A DNA stretch of 64,000 bases, from assembly GCA_964187785.1 (NCBI GenBank), contig OZ076409.1, positions 58,468,001 to 58,532,000 of the forward strand. Direction: 5' to 3'. Position 1 is the first letter of the stretch, and every line of letters starts with the position of its first letter. This document shows, piece after piece, positions 4,293 to 64,000 of this stretch. Both the position numbers and the translations under genes were made by a program. Source of the stretch: Amphiscolops sp. MND2022. Its lineage: Eukaryota. The notes below the pieces were generated by a model, which ran no database searches, had not been told where the DNA came from, and was given only the letters and a program-made list of their open reading frames with translations.

Positions 4293-4395
4293 CTTATCGC
4301 TTCAAATCAAATTCTTCCGAAAGTTCATTCGACACGATGTTCATGCTGACAGCAAAACGTTTCACGGTGGGGGAAGTACTTTAGTTAAAATTACG

Positions 4396-14068: not shown

Positions 14069-14078
14069 TACACTCCCC
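14069..14078 (-). promoter_or_regulatory. Short polypurine tract candidate of element A
   Basis: Minus strand reads GGGGAGTGTA immediately before the TGTAGCG LTR start. Confidence 0.5.
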
Positions 14079-15078
14079 GGGGTCTAGTCTTGACGTCCCC
14101 GTCAAGTGTGGGTTGGCGTCATTGAGTCTGTACCCAGAGTCATCTGTGTCCCACTGAGGAGGTAGAGTGCACATCAAATAGCGCTGGGCGGTTCATCGAG
14201 ACATCGTCAAATTGGCCTTGTGGAAGTATTTTTGACCCAGCGTTGCTGCATTTTGATCAAATCAATACAACTTTGTACACAAATCTTATACGGCAAAGTC
14301 ATTGCTTTTTGTAGCCTGTCGTGAGCAATTCAGGCGTTAAAATTTCTTTTCGGCCATTCAAAAAAAGTTTTTATTTGCCGTTAGCGTTAAAACTTGTTTT
14401 AAGGTCAACGACCATCACATGACTGTTCGAAACATATTTTCCGAAGCTCGGGAGCTTCGCACTGCTTGGCGTTTGATAAAAGTTCTTTTGGTAAGCAGTT
14501 GCCATAAAATCAATTAATTAGTACGGTCAATTTAAAATTTCTTTTGCGAGACTTACTCTCGATCCTGTCAGGCAGCTCAAGAAAAACAATGGTCGAGGTT
14601 CATCAATCTTTTTATTCTATTCATTTCTCATCTCTCCCTCCTTGTTTCCTTTTCCTTTATCTTTTCTTTTTATCTTTTTCGACAGTGGCAACAGTGTAAA
14701 CGATAACTAGCAACTAAAAGGGTGTAATAGCACCGAAAATTTAGAGCACGGAGTGCGCACAGCGCATCCACATGTAGCATGAAGTAGCATGAAAAAGCAC
14801 TAACTGCAAACACAAATTGCAAATTGAATATTGCATCTAACTAAGGCAAGGCAAGAACGCAGTTTCATGGTTGGGTTGCCGGTCCCAAAACGGAATAACA
14901 AGGAAGATGAAGCCCGGGGGCTTCATCTCCACTCGGAGATTTTTACCCATGACCAATTGGCATTTCCATAATCGAAGCTTAGCAACAACAGAGATTGAAA
15001 CCATGAGATTTCGCAAAATTTTATCTAGCATAAGACTATTGAAGTTGGAAATTGAATGACGACAAAGTTAGTTCTGTT

Positions 15079-19446: not shown

Positions 19447-19675
19447 GACGACAGTTCTGAAAGAGCGTAGGTCGATTGTAGCACACTTGATAGTAGGGTA
19501 ACACCATAGGTCATTTAAGGGTAATACCAGGGAAAGTAATAGAATGTTACACATTAACATTAAAGAAAAAGATAACGTAATAGTCTCAAATAAACTTCGT
19601 ATCGATTCACTAAACTTAATCGAGCGGACAAAAAAAAACGAAAAACAAAAAAAAGAAAGCGGACAAACGAAAGTT

Positions 19676-31798: not shown

Positions 31799-31816
31799 AT
31801 CCCTCTGTGGTCGCCA
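31799..31816 (-). promoter_or_regulatory. Primer-binding site of element A, tRNA-Arg-like
   Basis: TGGCGACCACAGAGGGAT resembles the complement of the 3' end of animal tRNA-Arg(TCG) (...CCCTTCGTGGTCGCCA, from memory); 16 nt inside the LTR edge. Confidence 0.75.
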
Positions 31817-31832
31817 AAAAATGATGTCTCTA

Positions 31833-32566
31833 TGTAACGACAAGCTCTCACCATTGTCGCCGCAACCATAAGAGTTAGAGGAACACATGATATGGGTATT
31901 TGCCCGGGACAGGCGCCCATGACCATGAGCTCATTTTGCCTCTATCGGGTAAAAACTGTCCCGTCAGAGGAGGATTCCGCTTCTTGTGAAGTGCTCGCCG
32001 GCCTGATCCAGTCTGTAATTGCTATCAGTAGTGCGCATTACGCTTTTTCTTCGAAATCAACACTTAGACAGCCTTTAAAAAATGCAAGTGGTGGAAAGGA
32101 AAAATCAAGTTTTATCGAAGTTACACAGGAGATTGAAATGAGTAGCTCACGAGCTGTTACAACAAGAAAATACGAAAATTACTACATAATTAGCACTTTT
32201 GAGGCAGCAATTAGCCGGGGACACAAGCACGGATGCTTGGTCAAGCTAATTGACTCATTTTTGGTAATCACAGCGTCTTGTAACGCTTCGCTGAAGAAAG
32301 CACTGGTTAGAACAAAGTTCAGTCCGTTTTGGCAGAAATTTGAGTCTTTTTCTGATAGTGGCCGTGTTTTTCTGCAATCTTCTCGTTCGGTTGGGGTCTC
32401 TTTCGAGTCTCTTGCTCAAATCCTCTTCAATTCCGTGGACAGGTACTTGAGTAAAGACACGCTGCCGTCTGGCGGAATATGACTCTTTAGTAGAGGAGAT
32501 ATAGTCCCTTGAACGAAATTTTCATCGAAATTTTCGAAATCGTGCACTCGATAGGTAGTCGCTACA
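31833..32566 (-). repeat. 5' LTR of element A (734 bp)
   Basis: Near-identical to 13335-14068, next to the PBS, upstream of gag-pol. Confidence 0.97.
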
Positions 32567-36740: not shown

Positions 36741-36931
36741 CGTTGTAATCTAGCTTTATGGTTAAAGAAGTATCTCAGTACAAAACTCAATTGTTTTCTA
36801 GCTTACTATACAAGCTTTCTGATAGTAGATCATCTGCGCTTAAGTGGCAGGTATTTAAATAAAAGAACATCAAATACAAGTGTAGTAGACAGTTTATAGA
36901 CTAATCAAGTTAATTGTCTGCACTCTCTACA
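36741..36931 (-). repeat. 3' LTR of element B
   Basis: Direct repeat of 42609-42799, preceded on the minus strand by a polypurine tract. Confidence 0.93.
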
Positions 36932-37216
36932 TTTCCCCCCTCACTATTGGCTGATGTTCGGCCAATGGGGTTCTGTTCTTCTACTGTTTGGCGGTAGTCC
37001 CTCCAATGGTCCAGTTGTTTATGGACGGATGACCGATCCTCGCTTGTATGGTTGTCACGGTGAGTGTTTTCCGTGACGTCAGTTTGCTGTCCGTTGTATG
37101 GACTAGTTGAGGTTGCTTGGTTCCGTTTCCATTTGCTTCGAGTTCAGCCTTTCTACAGTGTTTCCTGTAATCATGACATACTGGGTTATTATATCTAACA
37201 ATTGGGTTAGTTTTTG

Positions 37217-40200
37217 TTAGTCTTTTTGATCTGCGTACTGTTTGTTTTCTTCGTGTTTAATATCTGCTTCTAATTCAGTGCTAGAGCTCAGATTACTGAT
37301 CAAGTCTAATTCAGAATTTTCAAAGTTGTTCTCTTCCCCCGTTTTAGGAAAAGAAGTCAGATTTTTAAACACCTTACCATTATCATCTCTGATAAAAAGT
37401 TCATCATTCGCTTGTCTAGCGTCTTCGATAGCACGGTTGATCTCCGTGTCTGTCATGTTGGCGGCGGTGATGGTAAGTGGACCAGTGCTGCCCATCCCTC
37501 CTGGTGGGGATTGGTGGGGACTTGAGTTCCTCCGGTCTCGTATTAATTTTACTGGTCTGCCTCTGCCGTACGTACCCTTTATCACCGGGTATTGTCCGGT
37601 TGGTCCGTGGTGATTGGGCTGCTTGTCTCTGGTAGCGGTATCTCGGTATCTGATTCGATCACTTATGCCCTCTTCGGTTTTGATGGTGATCTTGTAAACC
37701 GGCCGTCTGGTCCTCTCGGCCCAGTTCCTCTGTTGTTGTTGCATTCCTGGTTAAAATTACAGATGGGTTTACTAATAGATTTCTTCTGTATTATGCTTCC
37801 GTTTGGCGTTGTTACGATATGGTTCGTTTCCGAAATAGCTAGATTCGGTATATCTGTATATGCACTTTCGAACTTTGTTTTCTGTTGTTTTTTTTCTAAG
37901 AAAAGAAAAGGGTGGTTACTAACTCCTTTATCGCTTTTTCTTGTCTTCATCGGTAGCTGGTCGGAGACACCGCCAACTCCGCTGAATGAATATACATGTA
38001 AAGTATCTGGTTTCGCTGAAAAGGAATTCTTTGTTAAATTTTTCAAGTTATCTGAGCTTAACAGGTTAGAAATTTCCGTGTTTGGTTTTCGACCGTAGTG
38101 TAGTTCGAATGCGGACTTCTTTAGTTTCGTGTGAGGTGTTTTTCTCATCACGTCTAATGACAAGTCTAGCGCTTTTCCGAACCGTTCTCCGGCCTTAATG
38201 TTCGTTAGAAGATTATCTTTCAGAGTTCTGACCCCTCTTTCTACTAAGCCTGTGGGGTTGTGGATGTACGGTGTTCCGTAGATCAGTTTAATGTAGTGTT
38301 TTTTGCAGAAATTGCGGAAAGTGCGGCCCGTAAACGCAGTTGCCTTATCGGTTCTAATTGTCTTTGGTATACCGTTCAGTTGAATATATTGTTCAAGGAA
38401 TTTTACCGCCGTTTCCCCGTCGGTGTGTTTGCAGAAACTGGCTGCCGGCCATTTGCTGTACCGGTCAATGGATAGTAGTATATAAAATCGACGGTTATTG
38501 TCCGTGATTGGTCCGATGAAATCCAATTGGATGTCTTCGTTCGGACTATTCACCGGAGGTAGGCTATTTTTTCCCGTGCTGGGTATGTAAGGTTTTATGC
38601 TCTTACCGGACATTTTGCAGGGGATGCAAGTTTCACATTTTTTCTGTATGGCTTCTGTCATCTTCGGCCACCAGAAGTGTCGAGCTGCCAGGGTCATCTT
38701 ATTGATGGCTGGATGTCTTTTGTGCAAAAGGCTGATGACTGTGGTTCGGAGGTTTTTTGGCACTATAATTCTGTCTTCCATGAAAACAAGACCGAACCGG
38801 CTGGATAGTTTTCTTCTGACCATTTGGTATTCGTCGGGTATCATTTCGTGCTGTTGTCTTTCGAGACATACCAGGGTTTTTAGCAAGCTGGGGTCATTTG
38901 TGGTCTCAGTCATTAATAGCTGCAAATCCGTGGAGAAGTTCTTTTCTGTCTCCCGCACTGCCTGTTCAAGGTTCCAGTCATTTCGCTCTTCTGCTGCAAC
39001 TCTTGGTGCGTGTCCCATCTTTACATACTGGACACTATTTACCCCGACATATCGTGCCCAATTTATTGCTGGCACCTCTAGGACCGAAGGGTCTTGGTCT
39101 GTTTCCGAGTCAATCTCACCTTCTTCCATAGGGATTGGTGCGGAGGATGGGCCAGGTTTGTCCGGTTGGTGTTGGTGGACTGGGGTTGGTCGGTCCATAT
39201 CCCAATATGGGTCCACTGTCCATTGCTCGGAGTGACCGGTTTGTGGTTGATAGCCCCCTTTGTTTTGCGGTCCGATAATTTGTCGAAGATCTTCTTGTTG
39301 TCGATTACTGGTAAGTTGTTGTAATCGTTCCTCTATGACTTGCCTCTCGTTGCGAAGGAATTTAGGTTCATGGTAGCGTTTCCATCACCCCCCGGTCATG
39401 CGGTAAATTCCGGGTTTAACAATTTCTTTCCACCGAGTCGTTAGCTCGGTTATTTCGGCAAAATTAAATCTTGCTTCGATGTTTTCGATCGTTCTAGCAT
39501 CCATTTTTAATGTGGTATGCTTTGAGTTGTTTAATTTGTTTGGCTTTGAGCGTGTGTGTACGGCGCTGTTAAGGCAATCAATGGCAGTTTGTTTACGGGT
39601 GTCGTTGGTCGATGGCTCGTTGTTCGATTTGCGTTCACTTATCTCTGTACCGTTTTCTGATTGGCTCGCATGGTTGCTAAGGCAACCGTATTTGGAGATG
39701 AAGCTGTAGTGTGGAATGATATTGTTGATTACGTATTCTTCGTCGTACGTATCGTCCGCTTGTGGTGGTAATACCGGATTTCTGCTGAGATAATTCGTGA
39801 GTGCTAAGTGTTTGCCTGCAATATGGTTTACGTTGATCGTGAAATGTGCTAACCGGTCCAACCACCGTGTTCAGCGTGCGCTATATGTTTCATTGGAGCG
39901 ATTTCGTTTAATTAATGGTTCTAATGCCTGGTGATCGGTCAAGAGTTTAATAGGTTTACCATAAACATACAGACGGAAATGTTCTAGGCCCCAAACTACT
40001 GCCAGTAGTTCGAGTTCATTGATGGCGTATTTTTTTTCTGTGTCTGATAGGAAGCGACTTGCAAAACCAATGGGTTTTAGTGTTCCATTCGGTTGTTCTT
40101 GCCATAAGGTTGCCCCTAGGCCTTTTGTGCTCGCGTCGGTTGTTATCACGTTTGGATAATCGGAGTTGTAATGTGCTAGACACGGTATTTCCGTGATCTT

Positions 40201-42541
40201 TTGTTTTAAATTTTCGAAAGCCCGTGTATGTTCTTCCGTCCAGAGCCATTTGGTATTTTTTTCAACAACTGTCTCTGACGGTTTGGGCGAAAGGTTGTCA
40301 ATGTATTTTGACAAATACTGGATGGCTCCCAGAAAGGATTTTAATTCCTTTTCGTTGTTCGGTTGTTTCAGTTCTTTTATAGCCAGTAGTTTGTCTTGTA
40401 ACGGTCGAATTCCGACTTGATCTATCCGGTGACCGATCCATTCAATTTCTGTTTTGAAAAATTCGGATTTTGTCTCACTTAGTCTGTATCCAGCGTTTTC
40501 GAGTTTGGTTAGGACGTCAATTTATTCTTTCATGTGTTCTTCTTTGGATCCTTTCGTTACCACGATGATATCGTCTAGCCATGCTGGGTGTTTGTTTTCG
40601 AGTGTCTGGTCGATCTTTTCTTGGAATATCGTCGGTATATCCGCTAACCCGTAAAATCCTTTTAGGAAGCGGTAGTAACCGGTGAAGTTTCTTCCGGTTA
40701 CGGCGAATATGCACAAGTTTCTGGCTGATTTTGAGAGTATGAGCTGACCGTAGGCATATTCTAAATCGAATTTGGAAATCCAGATTTCATCTGCTGGACC
40801 GTCTGCTATTTTTCTCGATATTCTCGAAATTAGCTCTTCCATGTTCGGCATTTGAGCTTTTCGTTTCACGGTTGTTTCGTTTAGCTTTCTTGAATCTAAC
40901 GCAATTTTACGGACTTATCTTTCTTTACCGTGATGACTGCTGGGCTCACGAAGCAATTTTCGTCAATATTGTTGGCCTTTTCAATGTGGCCTTGTTTCAT
41001 TAACTTTTCTATTTCTTTTTCCACCGATTGTTGCGAATGTATCGGTATGGGTCTTCCCTTCTGTTGTATCAATTTAGCATCTTCTTTCAGTTGTATTTTC
41101 ACTTCTAGCCCGTTTACTGTGTGGTTTTCATTGATCAGCTTTTTGAATTTCGTTTTTAGTTTCGTTACATCTGGGTCTTCTTTTATTTGGTGTATTTGTG
41201 GGACGGTCGTACCGGTCTCCAGCGTTATTCCCAATTTTTTCATCCAGTCCAAACCTAGCAAGCGGTTTGTTTTCTTGGTTGTTACTAGAAGCTCCAGTTC
41301 TTTTCGTGTTCCGTTAATTTCTACTTTCGCGGTTGTTTTCCCTTCAAATCGTGTCCGGTTGTCATTCACGTCCCGGTATTCAGTTTCTAAGGGGTGTAAC
41401 GGTGTTAACTTGTTGAATTGTGATTTTGGTATTAACGTTACTGGTGAACCGCTGTCTATTATGATTTTAATTGGTCGGTTGTTAACCAATGCGGTGATTG
41501 TGAAGAATTCCGGTCCGTTGCTGCTCATCGACCGGGTTGAGTGTATCTTTTGTTTTACTGAATGGATTGTGTTCGGTGTCCAGTCGTCTTTGCCTGCGCT
41601 GCTTGTTTCGCCTTCCATTAAGTGGTTTACTCTTTTGTTTGCGCGGCAGCATTTAGCGAAATGGCCAATTTTGCCGCATTTTGCACATTTCTTTCCTCTG
41701 GCGGGACATTCATGTTGGCGTGACCAGTTCGGTGCTCCGCAACGGTTGCAGTCAATCTTTTTAAATTTTGCCGGTTTTTCTGGTTGTTCTTTTGTGGTTT
41801 TTGTTTTTCGTTTGTTTACATATCGGATTTTCTTCTCTTCCTCTGTTTCGGGTGAGTCGTTTAATTTTTCGTACATATACTCATGTATTGCATCAGTTAT
41901 GGCTTCTACCGACATATCACTCTTTCTGATTTTCTTTTTTAAGTCGTAATCACCGGTTGATTTACCGATAAGTGACAAAAATTTTGATGCTAGGAGTTCT
42001 GCTGCGGTAACTGTTTCAAACTCGCAGTTCTTTTCCACTTCTAATATCCGTTTCCATACGTCTGCTGCAGTTTCGCCGTCTTCCCGTTTCAAATCAAAGA
42101 AATCGGCTCTGCTATGGTGTACGTTTCTCTCTGGGGTGAAGTGTAGTCGGAAGAGTGTGTAGAGTTTGTATAGTGGTAATGAGCTCGGTTCTCTTTCCCT
42201 GACCGTCTTTGTCATCTCCGTGATAGCATTTTGTCCGATTGCCCAGATAAAAATGTCTTTTATATCTGTTTCAAGTTGTTCACGGTATTGTGGTAGGATT
42301 TTTTTGCTGTTCGTCATTGTTGACAAACTATGTCTTTCGTCATTTTTATATATTGGACGAATTTTCTCCACCACATGCTTGCATTGGCTTGGTCTTGCTT
42401 TTCTAGCGTGGGAATGGTGAGCTTCTGGGTGCAGGTCCGGTCTGCCGTCCTGTTCATTGTGTCGTTCGGTAACATTTGTCCATCTCGTTGTGTTCCCGTT
42501 GACGTCTGTGTGTTCTCTCCGTCTCCCGTGTTTTCGTCCAT
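37217..42541 (-). pseudogene. gag-pol: Fragmented gag-pol of element B
   Basis: Consecutive minus-strand ORF pieces: Gag with CNRCG..HECPARGKKCAKCGKIGHFAKCC, protease IIDSGS, RT WLDD, RNase H TTDAS, integrase (HKRHP..CIPC, QLDF, RTDK, GLVERG). At least five frameshifts or stops, e.g. in-frame TGA at 39871-39873. Confidence 0.92.
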
Positions 42542-42590
42542 ATTGAATGGTTACTTTCTCTTTTTGGTGTGAATCGTGTATAGCTTGAAA

Positions 42591-42608
42591 GCTATTCTGA
42601 CTGTGCCA
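42591..42608 (-). promoter_or_regulatory. Primer-binding site of element B (tRNA-Ser-like, degenerate)
   Basis: TGGCACAGTCAGAATAGC begins immediately after the LTR terminal CA; resembles the TGGCGCAGTCGG Ser-type PBS. The tRNA identity is tentative. Confidence 0.6.
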
Positions 42609-42799
42609 TGTTGTAATCTAGCTTTATGGTTAAAGAAGTATCTCAGTACAAAACTCATTTGTTTTCTAGCTTACTATACAAGCTTTCTGATAGTAGATCA
42701 TCTGCGCTTAAGTGGCAGGTATTTAAATAAAAGAACATCAAATACAAGTGTAGTAGACAGTTTATAGACTAATTAAGTTAATTGTCTGCACTCTCTACA
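42609..42799 (-). repeat. 5' LTR of element B
   Basis: TGTTGTAATC...CTCTCTACA, direct repeat of 36741-36931. Confidence 0.93.
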
Positions 42800-43882
42800 C
42801 TTACCATCTAAAACTTTGTGCGTTCGAATGTTGTAAACTTTCAAAACTCATGGAAAGTTTCGAAATTCTTACAAAACTTGCATTGAAAAAGTCACAACCC
42901 GAAAAATTCGAGCTTTACACTCTCTACATTTCCTAAATGAAACTGCTGGTATCTCCTAAAAAGCGCCATTGAACAAATTCATCTTGCTTATCTACGTTTT
43001 TTTTTCAAACTTTTCAAAATTTGTCAATTAGACAACTGATAACTGTAAACTTTTTGTGTCTTTCCGACGTATTTTTTTAAACAACTGTAATGCATAACTT
43101 ATTGACTTGTTAGGAGCTTTTGAACATTCTAACCAATCAATTTAAAATGCTTTCCTAGGAAAGGCTAACTGAAAATGTCATTTTGAAATGTTTTGAATAA
43201 TTCAAAAATCAAAATATCTGAATGTTTCAGACTTTTTGTCAATTTTAGGAACGTTTTGATGACTTTTCAACATGAAATCACAATTGATTTTCGAAAACCC
43301 TCCTGTAGAACGCGTTGGTATGCTTTTGAATGTTTTCGTTCTTCAACAAACAAAATTCACCAACATTTTGTGTTAAAAAGGTGGGTTCACGACATTGACC
43401 TTTTTGAGATTTTGTTCTTTCTAAAAAACTACAAAACGCCTAGTGCAGCAACACTTTTATGAACTGTCTGGAGCATTTAGAACCGTCTAACGTACGCAAG
43501 CAATCATTAACATTGGAAAAAAACAATTGTGAATGCTCGATTTGTTCGTCTTTTTCCGGGTCAATTTGAGTCCTTTCCATACACAAATCGGCAAACATCT
43601 CTACACAACTCTACAACCAACTGGATAATAACTGCTTTCGTTGCTGATTTTCCTAAACAATCTCACCTTCTAAATGTTTTGAAACTTTCACGAAATTCGC
43701 GCAAAAACTGTCACTATTTTGAATTATTTTGGAGGTCAAGTGAAGCATTTTTTATTTGAAAGTTTCTATTGATTTTTCTGAAAAGCCTACTGAACAACGA
43801 TTTTTTCCTTGTGTAACGATTTATTATAATCGACGAACACCACCGAAATTTTGACAGTATTTGCATAAAAATGTTTATCTTC

Positions 43883-50636: not shown

Positions 50637-52613
50637 CTGGAACAACAATCGTTTTCATATTTATTTTAGTCATTCTGGGGATCAAAGTTGAGGTCATAGA
50701 GTTTTCTATGACAAGCTGGAAAATGACCACGGTTTTTTGTTAGTTTTTGTATCAACATCTATCAGCATGAGACAGCATGCATATGCAACACTTCAAACAT
50801 GCCGCCAACCGATTTTTCGCTGTATCGGTTGAAATTTCAATTCGTAGACTTTTTGTAACATTAGTGAACGCATCAATTCTTTAGATTCTATCAATTAAAT
50901 TTTATTAGCTTATTAAAATTTTTTGTCTACCAAAATTCTTTTCATAATGTTTCCCATTTTAGTAGATATAAACTATTGCTTTAAAATCAATCGTTTATGA
51001 CTCATCGCCTTTTAACTTTCCTACAAATTCAAGTAATAAAACCATCGCTAATAAATTCAAAGCGACAACTTGGCACATTTTGGTTGAGCAAAATGTGGTA
51101 ATTATTGATATAACTAGTGAAGTTGAAATAAATTCACAATTAAGACATGATTAAAACAATTTCCTCGAGGAAATGATTTCAGTATTTTAGTATGCAAGAA
51201 GCTAATTTGTTTGAAAAATCCAGCTAATTAGAGAGAGCATTGTTACACTTTTTAGAAACTTATAAACGTTCAGCACAATACGGAGAGGAAACTACGTCGA
51301 CATTGCTTTTACTTGCGGATTAAATATATTGCTAATGGCGGCTTCATTTTTTTGCAAAAGTGGAAAGATAAAAAGAATTGTGCCACAAAAAATGCCACTT
51401 TCTTCTAGGTTATAATGTCATAATCCTGAAAAGTACGTATGAAGAACTGTGAAGACGTTTAATTCAAACACTAAACTGGCATTTTTTCATTTTCTTTCCC
51501 CTTTAGCTTTACATAATCGCAAATACATAGACTCGTTTGATTCTTTTCAGAGTAAAAATTCACTCTTTTTGCTACAAAAACTGAAAACTTTTGTATGTAA
51601 TCCTTCACGAAAGTATATAACTGTTAGAATTTTAAAAAGAGATTTGAATAATTTACAGTTCAAACGAAAGTATTTTTGAAGCTCTTGAGTATTTACACAT
51701 GTACAAAATTGACGAAATCTCTCCCACGACTAAATCTGTCGCTTCTCAAGGACCCTTTCAGAAAAACACGCGGGACCGTCCGGCTATTGAAGTGCAAGGA
51801 TGAAACTTCTCAGTGCCACCGCCGCAGCGGGTACTAAATTGAATTGGATGGCACCGTAAGTATTGATAGACATCTAGATTATACTTTGTACTTGTGAAAA
51901 ATTAGATTCGTGTTTTTACTATTTTGTTGCGTTAATTTTCACAAAACATAATAAATGCGTACGAATGTGTAAAACCTTATAAAAGTGAAATTGTAGCAAA
52001 AAAGCTGAAAACAGATGTCGAAACCGCCTTATCATTTTAAACAGTCAAGTAGGCACTTTTTTAGGATATACGAAATATTGCAGCACTCAAGAGAAGCGAA
52101 AGAGAAGTTTCGAGATTATAAATATTAACCGATGTTTTTTGATTACGCTCTTATGCTGAGATTTGACAGCAAGATCAATCGACGAGACTCGCTCAGAGGG
52201 TCAAATCAGTTCACGATCAAGTGAGTGATATAAATGAACTGCTTAGGGACGTGGGATAATTAGTTTAAAAGTAATAACCAGGTTTCCGATACCTCTAGCT
52301 CGTAATAATTTTACTCATTTCATCTGCGAAAACAAATGAAATGCTCAAACACGCGAAATTTCAGAATTTATTTAGCATTTCAATTGTATCTCAACCAGAG
52401 TTTTGACACCGCTAATCAGCGAATTAGCGAATTAGAGGCCGCGCAGAATTTTTTCAATTTTATTAGCGATTCAAATTAGCGGCAACTAATAGGTCCAAAT
52501 TCAAAATTACCTCGGAAAATGAATTTCGAAAAATTCCAACTCTTGCACTTGAACAACTCACACAGTATGAGAAATTTTCTTGGAAAAATTTAAATTGGAT
52601 TTTGAAACATACT

Positions 52614-53199
52614 TGTCGTAAGCATTTAAATTAATACCACCATCATTCTGATGGTCATGATTATGCTTGCTAGCTGAACTGTCTTTGGGGTTAATATTTT
52701 GCAGTCCTTCGGAATTTATTTCCGGTCTCTCGGACGGAATGTCCCATCTGTTTTGTGTCATGTGTCCTGACCCGGCACTAAGGGCGGATTGGATTTGTGG
52801 GAGTACTTGGTTGCTTATTGCATCACTAATTGCCCTTTGGATCTGAGAATTGACACTACACATCATATCATCTAACTCTCTTGATAATCTAGAGTTCAAT
52901 TCACTTGACAACTTGTTAATCTCAGCACTAGAGTTGCCACCAATTGAGTTTCGACCATAATCGGCATTATTACCAGGATCAATGTCCCTTGTGACTGAGT
53001 GCCTGTTTTCACCATTATTTCCTAGTTCATCTGCAGAGGTACTACCAGGCCTTCTACCGAAATTGCTACTAACACTTCCGTCTCTTTCATTTCTATTAAA
53101 GTGGTTTTCCCCCAGCATTATGTCAAGGTTCTCCAAGTCAGAAAGCATCTCAATTCCTCTAGACTTTCTAGCTTTCTTTTGTTTCCTTGTAGTAGGCAT
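52614..53199 (-). CDS. LTR-encoded ORF start (MPTTRKQKKARKSRG...), probable Gag N-terminus, open across the LTR end
   Basis: Homologous to 7402-8047: MLSDLENLDIMLG/VMSDIENLDVMLG, SSELNSRLSRELDDM/SSEISSQMSRKLEEM, AISNQVLPQI/AIDEKILPSI. Reads into flanking DNA to a stop at 52558. Confidence 0.7.
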
Positions 53200-54190
53200 C
53201 AAGATTTCAAGGTTGAATATTTTATTTGGTAATCTAGTTTTGCAATCTATAAATGCGAAACAAATCAACTGATCTGAACAATCGGTATGGAATTAATAAT
53301 CACCTCAAGGAAACATTGCTATATATACCCTTACAAGTGTGATCAAATTCCATTTGTAAACGACAAATTCCTTAATGGTCATGAGGACCGACATACAGCT
53401 AGTTAGCACCTCAAAGACTTTCAGGAATTCGTCCTAGTAAGGTCAAATGTTATTCCAAACATCACGTGGTTATAGGTGTGACAGGCGGCGTGCCCAACTT
53501 ACATTGACCGTGAGTTAACATCAAACAAATAACTAACGTACTTAACATCAATACAAATAACAAAAATGTTAACAATGCACTGTTCATTGCATTCCTTATT
53601 ACAAGGTGTTGAGACAGCACGTGCTACCACGTGGCTTGCCATGTGCCGTCTAATTCCCGTATCAAATTGAATAAATCATGATCAACAAACGCAGCAGTGA
53701 CATTGGTGCAAGTTATTTTCACGAGGCCGAAACTGGCCATGTCCGGGGTTTCAGTCTTGCACTGGGAAAAGGTGGGGGGGGGGCTTCATTCCAACTGCAA
53801 TTATTATTATGCTCATTTCTCACATTTAAGCAGAGGGGGAGTATAATTATAGCATCAACAAGTGGACTAAAGTGAATTTGAAATAATAGGTCCGGTTATT
53901 ACTATCAAAGCAACGTCAATTAACTATTTGTACAAAATGGCCGGAACCGGCCGTTTGACCAAGTAATACAGCACAGCAAGCGTTATTTAGGAAATAGGCC
54001 TAATTAGGCCATGATAGCAACAAAGCTAATATAGCACAACAAATACAGCGCTCTGATTGGATAAGACAATGCGCTCAAGTGACGCTTTTGGATCAGCGCT
54101 TAGCATCACTTGAACACGTTTCCTATACTGCCTTACAGTTGCTTTATATTACATTGCTCTGCTGTAATTGCATTCAACACATTTGCAACA
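52614..54190 (-). repeat. 3' LTR of element D (right boundary approximate)
   Basis: End TTACGACA at 52614; TATA-like GTATATATA ~53320-53328; CCAAT 54056-54060; candidate TGTTGC start at 54190, at a similar distance from CCAAT as in C. No convincing PPT seen. Confidence 0.6.
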
Positions 54191-54300
54191 TAAAACATCC
54201 CAATTTGGACAATTCCAAATTGTATTTAACAGACTAATATTCAGTTTGGATAAATAAACTAAAATAGTTAAAGCGAGTCTTGGCAATTGCAGTTTTGAGT

Positions 54301-55083
54301 TTAATAAATGGGTAATGTACCTGGGGTAATTTCTTGTCCGTATCCCGAGGTCGTATAGTTGTTGCCATCACAGGCGGCAGCCTGCGACACTGCGGGTGCA
54401 ATGAAAAGTAAGCTGCCGGCGTTAAGACCGTTCACGTACGCTTCCCGCCTCAATTTGGTGATGTACTCAGGCTCTCCTCTGGGGGTCGATCTGTCCATAT
54501 ACCACTTGATTTTTTCCTCTTTGATTTCATCTACTGCTCTCCCGCAGACCATGCAACTAGTACACCGTTGTCTGCTTATATCGTCGTAGGGCCTCGAGTT
54601 CTGAATATGATATGAGGCACGGAAGCCCCCACTAGTTGATTGGACCAAAGGGGTGTCTTTGCTTGGGCCCTTTTCGTGATCCGGGGGAGATAGGGGCGAC
54701 TCCAAAACTGGCAAAATCGTACTACAAATCTTGATTTTTGATTTCCCGGCCTTCTTCGGGGGGGCGTAGCACCTATCTATGTCGAAATACCTGTGATCCA
54801 GTTTAGGTGTCATCTCAGTATCCGTCTTTGACGTGCTTGGTCCAGCCACCATATCATTTTCCGTTGTGTCCACCGTCATAATTCGTCCTGCGATCAGCAT
54901 TGGGCTCGACGTAACCTCTTTCTCTATGCGGGCGATTAATTGTTCCGTGTCGGTAGAACAGTCCGATTCCCAGTATGAGGACTCTTCTTCATCGCTAGAG
55001 ATGTAGATTACTGAATCAGTAGATTCATCTGAGTCGCAACCTTCAAGATCAAATAATTTCCTTGAGAGGTTAAATTTGCTCAT
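54301..55083 (-). CDS. Element D accessory protein, ~260 aa, acidic N-terminus plus CxxC, function unknown
   Basis: Homologue of 5816-6643; ATG at 55083 (MSKFNL) chosen by alignment with MSLQFN. Confidence 0.85.
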   Translation of the reverse strand: MSKFNLSRKLFDLEGCDSDESTDSVIYISSDEEESSYWESDCSTDTEQLIARIEKEVTSSPMLIAGRIMTVDTTENDMVAGPSTSKTDTEMTPKLDHRYFDIDRCYAPPKKAGKSKIKICSTILPVLESPLSPPDHEKGPSKDTPLVQSTSGGFRASYHIQNSRPYDDISRQRCTSCMVCGRAVDEIKEEKIKWYMDRSTPRGEPEYITKLRREAYVNGLNAGSLLFIAPAVSQAAACDGNNYTTSGYGQEITPGTLPIY

Positions 55084-56031
55084 TATGTATTTCTTTGCAA
55101 TTTTGAGTCTAGGCAAGTCAACTGTTTGTCGATGAAATATGAGATTGAATGAATTTATCAAACTTAGGGTATTAGCCGAGTTCGGTCTTTTCCCGGCAAT
55201 TCGTTGTGGCGGTAGAATTCCTCAGTCGAATCTCCCAATCCGACATAAACATTCTTGAATGGAATTCCATAATTAGTTGGCTGCCTTTGATAATCCAATG
55301 TTTACCCCCCATCTACTACACCGCTTGGAGAGCTGTGAATAACACTCGAGTCATCAAAACCAACTTCACTATTTTCAAGTGGGTAATTAACAGGTCGCTT
55401 GAAGGTAATTAACTGCGCTCGTCGTAGCTCTTTCTCAACATGGCGTTAGCCAATCAGAATTACCCATTGATAAAATGAAAAATTAATAAATAAAATGGCG
55501 AAAAATAATAATTTTGACTATTCTAAAATGGCGATTTCTAACTAAGGGTAATAATGGCAACGGAACAGAACGGTAAAGGTAAGTAGGGTAAAAGGCCGTA
55601 ATCGGCCACTCAACTAACGAAGTTATAAATAACGAGGAATTTTCTGTACATTTCGCTGGCAGACTCCGTGTACAGTTTTAAATATGTAGATAATCGAATA
55701 ATATTAGTCTGGTAAATCTTCAGCCACGAACTCCAACTCTCCGATCCTATCTGATTGTTACATTTTCAATTCCATCTAACTTCCATTTGTCTCCATTCAA
55801 ATTCAACACATTTGCATATTCGTTACACTTTGCTATTACGACGTCCTTTCCTCTCATCACGAGTGGCATCTCCTTCTCAGAGAATCTCGGGTTCCTTCCT
55901 TCCCCAGCCGAGATTGGCTCAATCACACAGTCCCTTCGTTGTTCCTCATTCTTCTACCTTGGACTAACGATACTGGAGAAGCATGTCTTCGAGTACAGGT
56001 TGGTCTGGTTTTCACATGTTGAACTAGCTTA

Positions 56032-56045
56032 GCTTGATCAGGGCT
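56032..56045 (+). promoter_or_regulatory. Conserved 14-bp motif GCTTGATCAGGGCT upstream of the antisense gene
   Basis: Identical to 4396-4409 (-), with the same spacing to the ATG. Confidence 0.55.
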
Positions 56046-56146
56046 AAATTTCGTTCGTACAGCGCTTCCTGTTTCCACTAATAGGCACGTGATAACACGT
56101 TTTGTTCAAGTCTAAGATACTTCCGGAAGATTTCTAACGCGGCAAT

Positions 56147-59100
56147 ATGGATTCTTTTCGAGGAAGCATACCGCCAAATTTTATCTCTTTTCGTTTAGAG
56201 AACCAAACAACTGAAGTTGTGAATACACCAGCTAACCCCTCTGACAGCGTTTCGACAAGCAACCCCTTGTCTGAACAGACTGAGCAAGTCCAGCATCCAG
56301 CTACGTCTCAAGAATCACTCGGCCAACGAATTGACGAAGCCACTTCCTCCCATGACGCCGATAGTGACCCAGATGTTACTACATATGCAGACAATATGGT
56401 GCGTCAGTTGGAGGGAGCGCAAACATCAAGCCTTCCGCAAGAGGGGACAGAGCAAAGAGGCCAATTCTCAGAAGTCAAACTTGATACCCCAAAGGATCCT
56501 GTCATTACGCCCATCACTGAGCCTAGAAGAGCGAGCACCCCTCTTTCTGATAATGTGGGGGAGACCCCAAGTGCTGACCTTTCTGCTCTAGAGTCAGCCT
56601 TTCGAGTAGTCGGGACACCCGGATCCCAATTAGTTGAACTTGTGGATATTGATCTTTCAGCCAACACCACTGGAGATAGCCCAACCCTGCAGCAGGACAC
56701 GGAAGCAGCTTCCTCGATAGGAGACGCTCCACCCCTCCCTGGTGGGGAAATAAGAGTTCGATACCTCACAGAGCCCAGCGGAGATGAGGGGGCAACCGAC
56801 CAGTCCAGCGTGATAGCTCCAGTAGCTCTATATGGAAGTCATCCTTTCTCTCACGCCTCTGGAACAGATGGAGGGGACGAAACTGGACCTGACCCTCACG
56901 TTCCAGGTACCAGTGGGCCGTCGTCCGGGCAAGGCGCAGCTCAGAAAGAACCACCACATCTCTCAGGAAGGAGTCGGGCAATTCTCAAGGAGTATTTTGA
57001 TGAGTCGCCACCCTTGAGGTTCCCCGTAGGCCAATCCACCGTCACCTTCACAGAGCCGCAAGTATATCACTTGTTGAGAGTCCTTACCGATGAGACTCTA
57101 GGACGGTCCTTCTCAACCATGGAAAAAATGGTTATTGATGCGGTTCGAGGCAGGCCAGCCATTGCTCCATCCAGGACTGCACATTTCTACTCGGGTAGAC
57201 GAGCTCAGACCCCTGGACCTGCAGCCATGGGAGATTCCAGCGGAAGTGACACCGAAAGGGAAGCTACTCTGGGGGACAGAGATGTTGGATCAACTGAAAC
57301 CGAAATGACAGGAGAGTCCTCCTATTATGGGGAGACTGACAGTGCAACGGAAATGGATCTCATAACCAAGTCTTTCAAGAAGGTCACACAAGGTCAAGGC
57401 GCTCCTGAACCGCAAACTCCCAGTCAAGACATATCACAGGATGTTGAGATTGATGCCCCAGAGTCCAGTAGCCAAGATGATACTTTGCTTGAGGTTAGGA
57501 ACCAAGCTCTAGCCGCACCCAGCGCTGGATCCTCCGGGACTAAAAAGAAGAAAGGAAGCAAGGCCCTTTCCAGACGTGGGGTCCCTATGCGGGAAGAATT
57601 CTTTAGCAAAATTGGATGGACGAGATCCTTCATTTCTGGCCCAGCAGATCCTCTTCATAATCCACTCATGGTCTGGTGCCACATTTGTAAAAAGAATTTT
57701 TCCATAAAGTCAAAGGGGCCATACGAAATCCTCAGGCACCATCGGACTGCACGTCATCTGCGTCGAGACCAGCGTTGGCGATACGAGCACCTCCGCAGCG
57801 TCGATCCAGTCACAGGGAAGACGCAACACCGAGTCCGAGGTGGGAACGGAAAACTCCTGACCAAGGTGGAGTTAGCTAGAGAGCTGCCCAAATTCAGGAA
57901 TGTTGAATTAGTGGACATTGGTGAGCGCTTTCCCTTTTATGACGACTTCGTCAAAGGCTCCACCACTACCATGACCACCCCTGAAGCTCGCCTCAAAACT
58001 CAGCTCTGCCTGGTTGGAGATTACATCAGGACCCAAGGCGATATGATGGTCTTGCGTAACCTGTGGTCCCGAATTGGATCGTTCACCAACCATCAAAGCA
58101 GTTTCAACGATTTTGATTGGGGTGAAGAAAGATTGTCGGTAAGTACTTTTCGCCTCACTCATTGACAGTCTCTCCTAAGTCTTCCTCTTTCCTATTTAGT
58201 CCAAAGGGTGTTTTCTGTCTTTAGGCGATTTTCCAACATTTCTTCATCTGTTGTCTTGATGAAATCGCGGAGCAAGTCAACTCCCAACAGTGCTTCTCCC
58301 TCGAATTTGAAACAGTAGGAGTTTTCAAACACATGTCCATCAAGTTCTGGAAGGGGTCTGAACTCTGCAGGGTGTTCGTGTGTCGTAGCTCCCGATTCAC
58401 TACAGATGTTACCGGCGAACTGGGATCTCTTTCTCGCCTCCTCTCCGCTGTGTCCACAAAGCCCGGAATAGTCGCCTGTTCGGGATGTCATCCAGATCTA
58501 CCCAGAACCATTGATGAGTCTGGATATTACAACCAAGGGGTTCAGAGCTGTCCTCGATTTGAACATTTCTCCCTAGCTGGCCTCATGCATAAAACCAGCT
58601 ACAGCGTCTTTGGGAAAATAGATTTTTTCTCTGTCCTGCAAGCTCTGATGGTCTCTCTGGGCGGTTCTCTCATGGAAGACTGGGTCATCAGAAGTCCTGA
58701 GCTCACCAAGGTGAGTAGTTTTCTTATAGAATCTTCATCTAGGGAACAGGAACTGGGTCAGGACGTTTAGATATTCCTATCATGCTAACGCAGGTTTAAT
58801 TGGTATTTCAGGCCATAACCAGTTGCAAGCTAGAAGTACCAACCCTGCCCATTCTTTGCCGAGAGCTCATTGCCGAGTGGAAGTCTGTGGTGCGCTACCT
58901 CACTAATCACGCACCCTTGCAAGAAGGATCTGGCTCCAGAGGAAGGGTTAGATTTCCTTATCTGCACTTAAGCCCCTAAGGGTTTGGGTTGTCCTTATCC
59001 GTCAAACAAACTAAAGGTCCGTTTTCCAATCGTCAATTGGCCATATGTTTGTTCCAGGCACAAAGTTTCGAGTGGTCACTGATATGTGACGAATTCTTCA

Positions 59101-60371
59101 CCGTTAAGCTGGAGTTCTTCAGCAAGATCGTCAATGACTGTGAGTGTAGTCCTGTACAATTTTCGTGAGAGAAAACTGTCTTGAGTTGGACATCAGTTTT
59201 GTTTTTAGTCGTTTCCAGCTTCACAGTGAATCTGCAATACCGCCGGGATGCTTCCTTCTATCTATGCGGAGAAGTTAGCCGCTTCCTCAGCCTGCTTTGC
59301 TCCCGAATCTATACTCCGGACACTGCCCCAATTGCCAACGCTTGGTTTCTCCTCCTCCGGTTCCAGACCAGTGAGGGTACTTTCCTCCCCGGAGACGAAT
59401 ACCTGATTCGTCTCAAGATGAGCAATCGAGTGGCAACGGCAAGTAGAGTCAAGGCTGATGGAATCCATTTCGGCCAGAAAACTGAACGTCCTGCCATCCT
59501 GGCCACTGCCGATAAGGTAAAAGCTGATTTCGTCAGGGACAGCCAGCAGTACATCCAGTTTTTGATTAATGGAGTACTTGAGAAGACAGCTTTCAGTACC
59601 AACCTCGTAAAAGGATTGGCGGCCTTTGATCCTTATATAATGCTGAAGCGACCCACGGATGTAGCTTTGCGGCACTTCGAGGTACTCTACAACACCTTTG
59701 CACTTCGATCTTGGGTTGAAGAATCAAATGAGTCTCAGTGTCGGGACCAGTATATTCAGTTGCTGGACCATCTCCAGACTGCCTTCGGTTCCAGCTTTGA
59801 TATTACTAGCGTGGAACCCGATTTGATTCAATTCCTGATGGGGCTTGATTTCCTTCATGAGCGTCCACACTTGTTATATCTCTTCAAGTTGAGTTGTTTG
59901 TGTTCAACCACCGTCAGCCCAAGTTACCCAGATGTCACCTTTGGAGAGGTCACCACTGCAGGAGGGCAAAGCAGATTTACGGACCTGGTCTTGCCTTGCC
60001 AGAGTTACATGGCTAATGTTGCCGGATCGGTTTTACGGAGCAGTGAAGACTCCCACTTGGCCAAGTTCTCTGCTCTAGCTGAGTCCTTTGGACGTGCTGC
60101 CTTTTCCTCAGAGTACGATCCTTGGGTTTATACTGACACTTTCGGTCGGTCAAGAATCTATAAGTCTCTCCTGTCCACTCACCGCAAAGCCGACTCAGCT
60201 CCGAAGAGGGTTTCAACGCAGGTCAATTTGGCAGAGAGTAGTACCGTTGAAGAGCAGTCTGCAGTAAGGATCCCCAGTAGCAAGAAGCGGAAGAAGGGAA
60301 GGAGTGTTTCCCGATCATCATCATCCTCTGTCGTTGGTAGTCCTAGTAAGGATTCTTCTACTAAATCCTGA
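56147..60371 (+). CDS. Intact five-exon gene (predicted 1285 aa): disordered N-terminus, BED-like C2H2 Zn finger, hAT-transposase-like body lacking catalytic residues; antisense in element D
   Basis: Exons 56147-58138, 58225-58710, 58812-58946, 59058-59139, 59209-60371 total 3858 nt in one open frame. GT-AG introns of 86/101/111/69 nt, phases 0/0/0/1, at the same positions as in element C. AATAAA at 60565-60570. Confidence 0.9.
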
Positions 60372-60621
60372 TTCTGTACATATGTATTTATGTACATCAA
60401 ACTGTAAACTCTGTTGATTTCTTTATTTCTCATTTTGTTGTCACATTTGTATTCTGCTATCATTTCTTTGTTTCATGATCCCATATTTATTCACTTGTGC
60501 GGGATCATTGCTTTAGTGCCCTGTTGTTTATTCTGAAAATTCAGCTTCCGGGGCCAGAAAAAGAAATAAAAGGAAAAAGAAAATGAGCTAAGCGTTCTTT
60601 TGGACGCAATTTACTCTTTTC

Positions 60622-63600
60622 CTAGTATCTGAAGTCTTCTGAGTAGTTTGGGTTAGGATTAGGCCTGAGATTATATTTCCCTCCTCTGGGGCTCAAGCTC
60701 TCTTTTCTAGCATCATTTTGCGATATTTCGGGCACGATAATATCATCCCCCTTTTTCGGAGAATTTTGTGCATCGTTTTCATTCATCAAATTCTTTTCTG
60801 GAAAATTCGCATCGTCCTTTAGTCTTTCAACCGTATTCGGCGCAGGTTTTTCTTGATCCGTTGTGGAAACGGCCGGATTCGGCCAATCAGAGTTTTCATT
60901 CTCATTTGCTTCATTAGGTTCATTAGCATTGCTGACGTCATTTCTCATTCTTTCGGTTCTATTGCGTACAGCGTCGTTGACGTCATTCGGATAATCAGTC
61001 GTGATTACATAATCACTTTCATTCTCGTTTGCATCATTCACGTTCGTTTCTGGCGTAGTCGGCCTCTCGCTATTCGTCAGGCTAGCCGGAATTGGCTCGT
61101 TGCCTCGTGTAGCTAGTTGCTCACCAAAGTTTGTTTCCCACGTTATTACATACAAGTCGTCTTGCGGAATGATTATTTCGTCGTCCGGCTGTAGGCGCTG
61201 TTCTCGGAAATTGTCCTCAAGTGGCTGATTCGGAATAAACTTTTTGAGACGAATTCGATGCAAAATCTGCGTTTTATTTGTATTAAGCCTGCGGATGATG
61301 TAGTTCTCATTAGGTAAAATCTTCTGGACTATGAACGGTCCAACCCAACGATAATCCCTAAATGGAATTTTTGATCCTTGATGATCCGCTTTCGGTTGTA
61401 ATACAAAACAGTAATCGCCCTCTTTGAGTGGGGCGGCTTTGGCTTTCCTGTCGTAATACTCCTTATATTTGATATATGACTGCATGATGTTCTGCTTTGT
61501 CTTGTCAATAAGGAGTTTGGTTCGGTTCTGGATTTCTTCTGCGAATTCAGTAGTCGGATGGATTTGCTCATTTGGGTTCATTCCAAGTTTGTGATCCAAG
61601 ATGTTATATGGGATTCTCCCATGGAACACTCTTGTCGGTTCGCATCCGATACTGGCATGATAACTAGTGTTATGATTGAGAACTGCTAAAGGCAAATACT
61701 TATGCCATTGTCGGCGATATTCTCCACATGCCATTTTCAAATTCGTTTTCAATGAGGCATGTGTTCGCTCTAACTTCCCGATAGTTTGCGGGTGTTTGGT
61801 CGTTGCACATTTTAGGGTAATGCCTAAAATCTGTGTAATTTCCGCAATGATCGTGGAGGTAAAGGCAGTTCCCTTGTCCGTAATGAGCGTCGTCGGTAGG
61901 TAAGAATGTTTGGTCATAATATCAATGATTGCTTTAGCTACATTGATCGCTGATGCGTCCGTAAGAGGATAAGCAAACAAGTATCGAGAGAAGACATCAA
62001 TTGCAGTTAAAACATTTTCGTATCCTCCACTTGGGGGAAGATTCGGCAATAAGTCAATTTGCATGGCGTCTTCGGGTCCAAGGTCCCATTCCGGCAAGTT
62101 AAGTAGTTCAGGCGTGATTGTTGCATTTGGGACTCGTTTGTCCTTTGCACATTGTTCACACCCTTGTACCCACTTTTTGACATGTTTCGCCATGTTGGGA
62201 TAATAGTATCTCTGTCTGATCTCCTGCAGCATCTTTGAAATGCCTGGGTGCTTGTGGGCTGTCCCGTGTAGGGACTGAAGCAATTCTGGCAGCAAGTGTT
62301 GCGGGAGAAGAATTTGATGGTATTTTATATTCCCAGTTTCATCAAAATATTGCCTTGTTAGTATGTCTTCCTTGATGACAATTCTTTCCAGATTATTAGC
62401 GTAATGCCTGTATCGAGCATCTTGTTGCAGTATGTTTTCTGAGTACTCTTCATGAAGGAGCTTCGCTTTCAGTTGTTGCAGTACTGTATCTTTGGATTGC
62501 TCAATAATTATCTGGTTCGTTTTCCTCAATCGGACCTGTATTTCAGGTTGTTGTTTGACTAAGTTAGTAGATAGAGTTTGTATTGTGATAGTAGGTTCTT
62601 CAGTTACAGGGTTTTTCCTGATTGCTTCTTTCCTCGCCCAATATTGTTCTTCAGTCTCATCGTCGTCATTTGTGTAGAAGATTTGCTCTTCCTGTGAGAC
62701 TCCTGCTGATTGGACGTTTATTTCTATTGGCAACGTTTGTACATCTTCTCGGATTTTCATTACTAATTTGTCCTTTGGGTCTGCTTCCAATCGGGACAAG
62801 TAATCCGCTGCCGTATTCTGTGCTCCTGGGATGTGCGCAATGACAAAATTGAACTGAATTACATAGTCGCACGCATTCCACAGGGCTGGGGGTACGATTT
62901 TCGTTTGGAAAAATCTTGTTACGGCTTTGTTGTCGGTTAGGATTATGACCGGTTTCGGTGCACCCCAGAAAATATGCCCAAATTCTTTAAATGCGAAGTA
63001 GATCGCGAGAAATTCTTTTGCATAAATTGACATCTTTATCTGGGCTGGGGTGAAGGTTTTTGAACCATAAGCAACCGGTGCATATGATTTGCGGATTGAC
63101 GTGAATTTCTGACTCGGGTCATCTTCAATTAGTACTGCATATCCTGCAGCACCAAAGCTTGCATCTGTCATTAGGGCAATTTGCTTGTTCGGGATGGGTT
63201 GTTGTAGGGCCAAGTCGCAGCATTTGTCTAGAGCTCGATTAATTTCCTCAAATTGTTGAACCAGTTCTTTGGACACTAGGACTTTTTCGTCACTCTTCAG
63301 CATCTTGTAGAACGGAGCAAGGCGTTCAGACAGTCTTGGGACATAATTCCGGTAGTAGTTCAAGAAACCCAAATATCTCTGTAGAGCCTTTTTCGACTTC
63401 GGAAATTTGGTTTTTTCTAGGAAATTCTGAACATTCTGCCGTTGGGGCTTGACGCCTTGTGCGGTTATTGTCCTGCCAAGGAAATCGATTTCTGTGGCAC
63501 CAAAATGGCACTTGTGCATCGTCAATTTAAGGCCTGCTTCCTGGATGCATTTGAAAGTTGCTCTCAGGTTAGCAATGAGGTGATCGGCGTCGTTGGCTGC

Positions 63601-64000
63601 GATGCCAATATCGTCTACATACTGTGCACATTGGTCCGCTTTTATGACTTTGTCAAGGTACTCTCTCATAAAGCTAGAGAATGCGGACAGTGCTCTATTA
63701 AGGCCTTGTGCCAGTCGTCTATATGCAAATGTGCGGCTTGCAAAGTTAAAGGCCAACATTTCGATTGAACGTTGGTCAGCCATCGGAAGGCAATGATACG
63801 CTTGTGAACAGTCTAACTTGCAAAAGAGTTTCTTGCCTGCCATGTGTTGGGCGGCATCGACTAGGGTACTGACTGGATGATTATTGTTAATATAATCATC
63901 AGAGATTAGGTTGTTGATTTTTCTCAAGTCAACCAGAAGTCTCAGTTTCCCATTCGGCTTCTTTTGTGCGAATATTGGGCTGGCGTATTTCGAGAACGGT
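60622..64000 (-). CDS. pol: Gypsy Pol (RT, RNase H, integrase), 5'-truncated by the window edge
   Basis: Frame open to the edge (PFSKYASPIFAQKKPNGKLRLLVDLRK); RT YVDD; RNase H MTDAS; integrase HGTAHKH..CEQC, QIDL, TDKGTAF, GKLERTH, WVGPF. Confidence 0.97.
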   Translation of the reverse strand, partial: PFSKYASPIFAQKKPNGKLRLLVDLRKINNLISDDYINNNHPVSTLVDAAQHMAGKKLFCKLDCSQAYHCLPMADQRSIEMLAFNFASRTFAYRRLAQGLNRALSAFSSFMREYLDKVIKADQCAQYVDDIGIAANDADHLIANLRATFKCIQEAGLKLTMHKCHFGATEIDFLGRTITAQGVKPQRQNVQNFLEKTKFPKSKKALQRYLGFLNYYRNYVPRLSERLAPFYKMLKSDEKVLVSKELVQQFEEINRALDKCCDLALQQPIPNKQIALMTDASFGAAGYAVLIEDDPSQKFTSIRKSYAPVAYGSKTFTPAQIKMSIYAKEFLAIYFAFKEFGHIFWGAPKPVIILTDNKAVTRFFQTKIVPPALWNACDYVIQFNFVIAHIPGAQNTAADYLSRLEADPKDKLVMKIREDVQTLPIEINVQSAGVSQEEQIFYTNDDDETEEQYWARKEAIRKNPVTEEPTITIQTLSTNLVKQQPEIQVRLRKTNQIIIEQSKDTVLQQLKAKLLHEEYSENILQQDARYRHYANNLERIVIKEDILTRQYFDETGNIKYHQILLPQHLLPELLQSLHGTAHKHPGISKMLQEIRQRYYYPNMAKHVKKWVQGCEQCAKDKRVPNATITPELLNLPEWDLGPEDAMQIDLLPNLPPSGGYENVLTAIDVFSRYLFAYPLTDASAINVAKAIIDIMTKHSYLPTTLITDKGTAFTSTIIAEITQILGITLKCATTKHPQTIGKLERTHASLKTNLKMACGEYRRQWHKYLPLAVLNHNTSYHASIGCEPTRVFHGRIPYNILDHKLGMNPNEQIHPTTEFAEEIQNRTKLLIDKTKQNIMQSYIKYKEYYDRKAKAAPLKEGDYCFVLQPKADHQGSKIPFRDYRWVGPFIVQKILPNENYIIRRLNTNKTQILHRIRLKKFIPNQPLEDNFREQRLQPDDEIIIPQDDLYVITWETNFGEQLATRGNEPIPASLTNSERPTTPETNVNDANENESDYVITTDYPNDVNDAVRNRTERMRNDVSNANEPNEANENENSDWPNPAVSTTDQEKPAPNTVERLKDDANFPEKNLMNENDAQNSPKKGDDIIVPEISQNDARKESLSPRGGKYNLRPNPNPNYSEDFRY

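Follow-up and report, generated by a model that had tools for sequence, protein, structure and literature searches.

The 64,000-nucleotide window analysed here (C1:58468001-58532000 in the 1.07 Gb assembly of Amphiscolops sp. MND2022) carries a predicted spliced gene, hereafter termed the cargo, that lies antisense in the interval separating pol from the 3' long terminal repeat (LTR) of a Ty3/Gypsy retrotransposon. The carrier element is 16.1 kb long and occupies positions 52614-68726 on the minus strand, extending beyond the end of the window. Its 1776 bp LTRs (52614-54389 and, outside the window, 66953-68726) have TG...CA ends and are 99.9% identical, as in a young element, and it is flanked at both ends by a 5 bp target-site duplication (TSD), ATACT (52609-52613, with the mate at 68727-68731, outside the window). 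The coding region comprises gag and pol, the latter in the order protease, reverse transcriptase (RT), RNase H and integrase. The gag frame starts within the LTR sequence, pol (RT, RNase H and integrase; 60622-64000, minus strand) runs past the window with gag upstream, and a TGG resembling a primer-binding site follows the 5' LTR. Between the pol stop at 60622 and the 3' LTR lie the cargo, on the plus strand, and a 306-residue open reading frame (ORF) on the minus strand. The cargo and pol are convergent, with 250 bp separating their stop codons. A previous examination of the DNA letters (the sequence-only reading) had proposed that the antisense gene is a hAT DNA transposase that has lost its catalytic triad, a class II gene domesticated by a class I element.

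Gene model of the cargo

The introns of the cargo were deduced by comparing its copies, which fall into several families (here A, B and C) that are 15-45% identical within the host assembly. The comparison points to four conserved GT-AG introns and probably to a fifth (intron 0). GT..AG ends are present in family A at 93 of 104 intron positions (26 copies) and in family B at 35 of 42 positions of introns 1 and 2 (21 copies). Among copies with canonical ends the introns vary in length (66-95 nt for intron 1 and 67-116 nt for intron 2) while the exons are of constant length, and DNA identity is lower in introns (44-68%) than in exons (66-85%). Family C, found in locus L028, is without intron 2 and keeps the other introns.

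Exon 1 (56147-58138, within an ORF at 56138-58165) begins with about 470 residues of acidic, Ser/Thr/Pro-rich low-complexity sequence (72 Asp/Glu versus 35 Lys/Arg) and continues with a KKKK cluster, a BED-like finger of the form CxxC...H...H (57677-57757) and a segment that can be aligned with the helical region preceding the catalytic domain of hATs; it contains WCHICKKNFSIKSKGPYEILRHHRTARH. Intron 1 (58139-58224; 86 nt, phase 0) is followed by exon 2 (58225-58710), which encodes the putative RNase H-like core and contains DEIAEQVNSQQCFSLEFE and GIVACSGCH. Intron 2 (58711-58811; 101 nt, phase 0) leads to exon 3 (58812-58946; 45 residues), with LCRELIAEWKSVVRYL, and intron 3 (58947-59057; 111 nt, phase 0) to exon 4 (59058-59139; 27 residues plus 1 nt), with VKLEFF, of which KLEFF corresponds to KLxFF of the hAT subfamily described below. 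After intron 4 (59140-59208; 69 nt, phase 1), exon 5 (59209-60371) encodes a putative helical insertion domain, the C-terminal hAT region and a basic Ser-rich tail with KKRKK, and contains FTVNLQ, LVKGLAAFDP and RPHLLYLFKLSCLC. Once the four introns are removed, all of the motifs quoted in the sequence-only reading are present in the order that it gave. The gene that it had placed at 57590-59950 is real but wider, running from 55983 or 56147 to 60371.

The uncertainty at the start concerns a probable first coding micro-exon (55983-55998), which consists of an ATG, four further codons and a G, followed by the donor GTTGGT. The pattern is present in 38 of the 39 distinct family-A and family-B copies examined and in the window its phase agrees with that of an acceptor at 56198. 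The resulting intron 0 (55999-56198; 200 nt) would be in phase with exon 1 and would include the alternative in-frame ATG at 56147, which is likewise conserved. The calculated product is 1,285 residues long from 56147 or 1,273 residues long from the micro-exon. The block spanning 55975-56200 shows 74-90% DNA identity, compared with 66-85% in the exons, and is a candidate promoter, splicing or genomic-RNA signal. It carries CTTGATCAGGG, which is common to families A and B and was not found in the family-C loci.

hAT ancestry and catalytic state

The cargo profile aligns colinearly, from the BED-like finger to the C-terminus, with that of one hAT transposase subfamily, here A5 (hhalign 98.7%, E 2e-16), at about 14% identity. 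The score of 142 for this match compares with scores of no more than 32 for 30 shuffled controls. Eight rows of the 31-row cargo profile carried a mis-chosen short exon, and five loci had been excluded for lack of a clean exon 3 or 4; the comparison was redone with 23 rows. The finger alone also matches the subfamily (E 4.7e-5): across 38 copies Cys31, Cys34 and His57 are invariant and His51 is conserved in at least 90%, and the four align with Cys38, Cys41, His58 and His64 of A5. The subfamily is itself tied by comparison to canonical hATs and reads FDE..SMDGPNVN..GSCGLH..KFC..RWLEN..SHGNAxVERGFS, with an invariant DDE (Asp-Asp-Glu) triad. Its members are widespread in animals (for example Amblyomma americanum LOC144121784 and Strongylocentrotus purpuratus LOC115926629). 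In the host assembly, a search with one exact motif found the subfamily at four places only (L145-L148), all truncated or decayed. In the grouping of hATs into Ac, Buster and Tip, as outlined in passages of PMC3942097, A5 is unplaced.

Structural comparison gave a mixed result. Two cargo exon models each match the Hermes transposase (PDB entries 8edg, 4d1q and 2bw3) weakly and in the right order, the aligned segments being the RNase H-like core and a helical segment ahead of the third catalytic residue; in Foldseek, however, the best E value for the exon-5 model was 0.47 and Hermes was not among the matches listed. Other searches were silent or nearly so. Pfam scans of the cargo exon sets returned nothing relevant, with no zf-BED, PF14291, PF05699 or PF04195, and sequence searches of the PDB gave no match for the exon-2 and exon-5 profiles and no hAT match for the A5 subfamily. 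A single-sequence search for homologues of exon 5 at longer lengths retained none of 3,305 candidates, and an exon-1 profile search found only unnamed close relatives among the 120 of 224 matches listed. Hidden Markov models (HMMs) of the cargo placed no ORF from 40 canonical hAT loci of the host assembly inside the inclusion threshold, and against the four decayed A5 copies they matched the finger only (E 0.006).

The more specific assignment to ZNF862/DUF4371-type transposases in the sequence-only reading gained no support from the comparisons made. Pfam is blind to the cargo and also to the A5 subfamily (none of 12 members tested was recognized, and a precomputed PF14291 match is present on one of 120 records), and a single sequence that we take to be ZNF862/Tip-like (L133) gave no match to the cargo (E 0.11-0.44). 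A PF14291 search of the genome found no match anywhere, its controls being likewise silent. The descent of the cargo from a hAT transposase, as judged from the profile comparison, is nevertheless well supported, with an unnamed donor subfamily.

Inspection of the DDE positions across copies shows that the triad is not retained in families A, B or C. The earlier claim of its loss stands with one correction, as family A keeps a conserved Glu at the first-Asp site (58309-58311; 19 of 19), where family B has Val or Ile (14 of 14) and family C Glu, Leu or Val. At the second site Ser-Gly (58480-58485) replaces Asp-Gly, the residue before the invariant Gly being Ser in families A and B and Arg or Glu in family C. 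The CxxH motif is replaced, with both Cys and His changed (in a register set by hand, hhalign having given gapped or shifted ones), and the Trp of the hAT RW motif (58681-58683) is kept in all 44 copies with the Arg replaced. KLSCLC (59886-59903) stands in for LSHGNAxVERGF. In the ungapped register the catalytic-Glu column holds Tyr (59925-59927), or Tyr, Met or Leu across families, and no acidic residue in 55 copies or 119 public matches. Because the register at the second and third sites shifts by about two residues between alignment runs, and because family-A copies carry an Asp two residues beyond the third site (23 of 23; no acid at this position in 19 of 19 family-B copies), the absence of residual activity is best called likely. 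The cargo is probably inactive as a transposase.

Self-BLAST of 54390-60700 gave no inverted repeat save two 12 bp palindromes (E 3.9), in line with the earlier observation that terminal inverted repeats (TIRs) are missing. The only TSD is the 5 bp ATACT of the whole LTR element; no search was aimed at an 8 bp TSD, there being no ends to anchor one. Neither an intact triad nor TIRs, which the sequence-only reading had associated with an ordinary nested hAT insertion, emerged.

Families, selection and co-inheritance

The cargo is abundant in the host assembly: each search gave 6,500-7,700 first-look candidates, of which 100-150 were scored, although these figures are not copy numbers. Among 121 scored exon-5 matches, 40 were 98-100% identical and stop-free, which indicates that the subfamily in the window expanded recently. 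A profile search of public proteins returned 1,149 cluster representatives at E <= 0.001, and the ten that were looked up were all unnamed. Some representatives are without a close match in the host assembly: for P0020, P0120 and P0146 the best matches there are only 29-37% identical, which places some members of the family outside this assembly.

Ratios of nonsynonymous to synonymous substitution (dN/dS; Nei-Gojobori method) indicate purifying selection on the cargo. The medians are 0.04-0.07 in family B, 0.04-0.16 in family C and 0.02-0.16 in unsaturated family-A pairs, many family-A pairs being saturated at synonymous sites; values overall lie mostly between 0.02 and 0.2, and those of the pol core between 0.02 and 0.05. 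The position of the cargo is also constant. In 122 of 126 fetched loci, which were picked by cargo similarity and include some places fetched twice, the pol tail lies antisense and downstream of the cargo; of the four exceptions, one showed a pol tail in another analysis, one had been retrieved in the wrong direction and the other two are without pol. In 22 elements with both cargo and integrase (three of 25 were left out, having no integrase in reach), the deep clades of the two trees agree, the distances correlate (rho 0.87) and the shallow branches differ. This agreement shows shared inheritance, not co-adaptation. Purifying selection, constant position and co-inheritance with the integrase together support the proposal that the retrotransposon domesticated the hAT gene, with selection keeping it intact.

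One recent subfamily, represented by C10:26526251-26545388 (L193+L183+L152+L194), has kept the cargo without gag, an LTR pair or a full pol. Six sister loci (L149, L153-L156 and L170) are 97.5-99.7% identical to L152. In this subfamily an open cargo is followed by the last 55-65 pol codons, a 212 bp palindrome and tandem arrays of 88 and 185 bp, and neither gag nor the second accessory ORF nor a pair of LTRs was found within 19 kb. L171 and L172 have no pol tail whatsoever.

The second accessory ORF of the carrier (54301-55221, minus strand; 306 residues stop to stop) is in sense with gag-pol and runs into the 3' LTR. Here and at 5747-6643 (plus strand) it lies head-to-head with the cargo and has a CxxCxxC motif, and in families A and B it crosses the LTR boundary (AACDG). 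It is under purifying selection (dN/dS about 0.09-0.12 where unsaturated) and matched no Pfam family. No chromodomain was among the Pfam matches of the carrier integrase, and a weak dUTPase-like match (E 0.03; L021:3-1838, minus strand, residues 353-434) lies between protease and RT. Ahead of the 3' LTR (54390-54430, minus strand) there is no purine-rich polypurine tract, and plus-strand priming may be unusual given such a junction; its CTGCGGG is common to four other elements as well. Rfam gave no match across 52600-64000, and ARAGORN found no tRNA. Elsewhere in the window, a frameshifted family-B cargo copy (29-4301, minus strand; about 30% identity in exon 5), which reads YSLEFV, sits in a second complete Gypsy element with LTRs at -8012..-6516 and 6551-8047 (98.6% identity). 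A different Gypsy element (13335-32566) has 734 bp LTRs that are 99.9% identical, a 3,292-residue gag-pol frame and a sense ORF of 1,551 residues (15079-19734) that matched no Pfam family, and a third (36742-42805) is frameshifted and has 190 bp LTRs. Copies of a dispersed repeat some 50 bp long, found in both orientations at 11415, 35151, 47834 and 47995, possibly represent the ends of miniature inverted-repeat transposable elements.

Possible roles and known systems

By analogy with Spm TnpA, our best reading is that the cargo acts in the nucleus, binding DNA so as to activate its own element or protect it from silencing, a reading held tentatively and falling a little short of probable. The gene, which has introns and probably a promoter region of its own, has been inherited along with the element and held by selection. 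If expressed, the protein of about 1,280 residues would be nuclear, its basic clusters suggesting import, and the BED-like finger and the retained DNA-binding and oligomerization scaffold of the transposase would bind family-specific motifs in the element. The long acidic low-complexity N-terminus could then serve as an activation or recruitment region for host transcription or chromatin factors, so that cognate copies would continue to be transcribed or would escape silencing, much as with Spm TnpA or VANC. Their antisense orientation may explain why the introns persist: from what is understood of LTR replication, introns opposite in strand to the genomic RNA would never be spliced from it.

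Other roles were weighed against the same data. The dead transposase might instead be an integration cofactor, attaching to cDNA ends or to target motifs in the chromosome and tethering the integrase complex or bringing it into the nucleus. Transposases grip DNA ends as oligomers, the pre-catalytic region and insertion domain are kept in the cargo, the integrase has no Pfam-listed chromodomain and the two proteins are co-inherited; yet the cargo diverges much faster than the integrase (58% versus 95% identity for L180/L181 compared with the window), intact cargo also occurs in copies without a nearby integrase and four TSDs (ATACT, GTTAC, ATACG and GTAAT) resemble ordinary integrase sites, and we regard this role as unlikely. 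The retention of the cargo in pol-less copies, and its rapid divergence despite purifying selection inside families, would also suit counter-defence through protein contact, in which the cargo would act in trans to block a host silencing factor or to serve as its decoy, with the transposase fold as no more than a scaffold; accessory proteins of transposable elements are predicted, in passages of PMC13547354, to make many host contacts. Conservation of the finger ligands and the hAT Trp across families that are 15-30% identical fits nucleic-acid binding, and we regard counter-defence as rather unlikely. Because the cargo converges on pol, its protein or transcript could dampen the element as a self-limiting repressor or antisense regulator, a type of regulation discussed for plant antisense ORFs (aORFs) in part of PMC7264820. 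A dN/dS near 0.05 is beyond what action of the RNA alone explains, however, and the family is strongly amplified, so that self-limitation appears improbable.

The remaining explanations fare worse. A nuclease with a rearranged acidic site could draw on the family-A Glu and downstream Asp and on the shifting register, but family B has neither acid and the CxxH, the RW Arg and HGxAxVERGF are lost in all families; such activity is very improbable. Dominant-negative poisoning of active hAT transposases, to the benefit of the host, looks the least likely of the functions suggested in the sequence-only reading. There are many hATs in the assembly (at least 150 scored PF05699 matches), and the related subfamily has a few copies there, but the latter, from the motif search above, are all truncated or decayed, identity to the subfamily is about 14% and a selfish element should be selected for replicating itself, so we give this function very little credence. 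Passive carriage of an ordinary nested hAT, although such insertions are common, is refuted by the present results: TIRs and triad are missing, position, orientation and intron sites are identical in families that are 15-45% identical, and the cargo is under purifying selection.

Returning to the activator or anti-silencing reading, we lean slightly towards a broader proposal, that a whole Ty3/Gypsy clade depends on a third gene, derived from a class II transposase, which would recognize the DNA of each family and activate, shield or target it. The gene would have been useful enough to diversify into many families and to spread also in pol-less elements, which possibly supply it in trans. If true, it would clearly be the retrotransposon, and not a host, that had domesticated a DNA transposase. 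The cargo widens such domestication beyond hosts, to mobile elements of another kind. Where the antisense accessory genes of LTR retrotransposons come from and what they do are open questions, and the cargo gives one such gene a definite ancestor; as this ancestry predicts DNA binding and oligomerization without cleavage, the question of role becomes testable. The failure of Pfam to detect either the cargo or its donor subfamily is a warning to annotators. Our literature search, whose coverage excluded most subscription journals, Repbase and supplements, found no description of a hAT-derived gene fixed in an LTR retrotransposon.

Among known transposases, A5 is the closest in kind, matching colinearly and sharing the finger ligands and Trp; the cargo differs in its lost triad, CxxH and RW Arg, its lack of TIRs, its LTR-element carrier, its acidic N-terminal extension of about 470 residues and its introns. 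In weak model matches, its putative RNase H-like core and a helical segment preceding the third catalytic residue align with Hermes in the same order. In position the cargo resembles the antisense ORFs of plant Gypsy elements, such as Retand TRP28 (PF04195), Grande gene23 and RIRE2, and of the fungal Boty; passages of PMC11963269 and PMC7264820 place these between pol and the 3' LTR, describe them as kept in most copies and of unknown function, and attribute to the Grande gene its own promoter and a nuclear location. As far as the relevant part of the review PMC7264820 goes, such aORFs are without similarity to other transposable elements and mostly of unknown origin. The cargo has the same position and antisense orientation, those of an aORF-3R, and is conserved in the loci selected by cargo similarity, but it has no PF04195 match, and its introns and near full-length hAT origin can be demonstrated. 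Other extra domains of Gypsy elements are reviewed in parts of PMC6431247 and PMC9289625. In function the nearest parallels would be Spm TnpA, VANDAL VANC, FAR1 and MUSTANG, transposase-derived proteins described in passages of bioRxiv 10.64898/2026.08.24.746577 as sequence-specific regulators that have lost catalysis; regulators of this kind without catalytic residues are treated in part of PMC13547354 as well. These four work for a DNA transposon or for the host. The ZBED family is a further host-domesticated transposase. The cargo, in contrast, is retained by an element of class I, for which it would act as a regulator.
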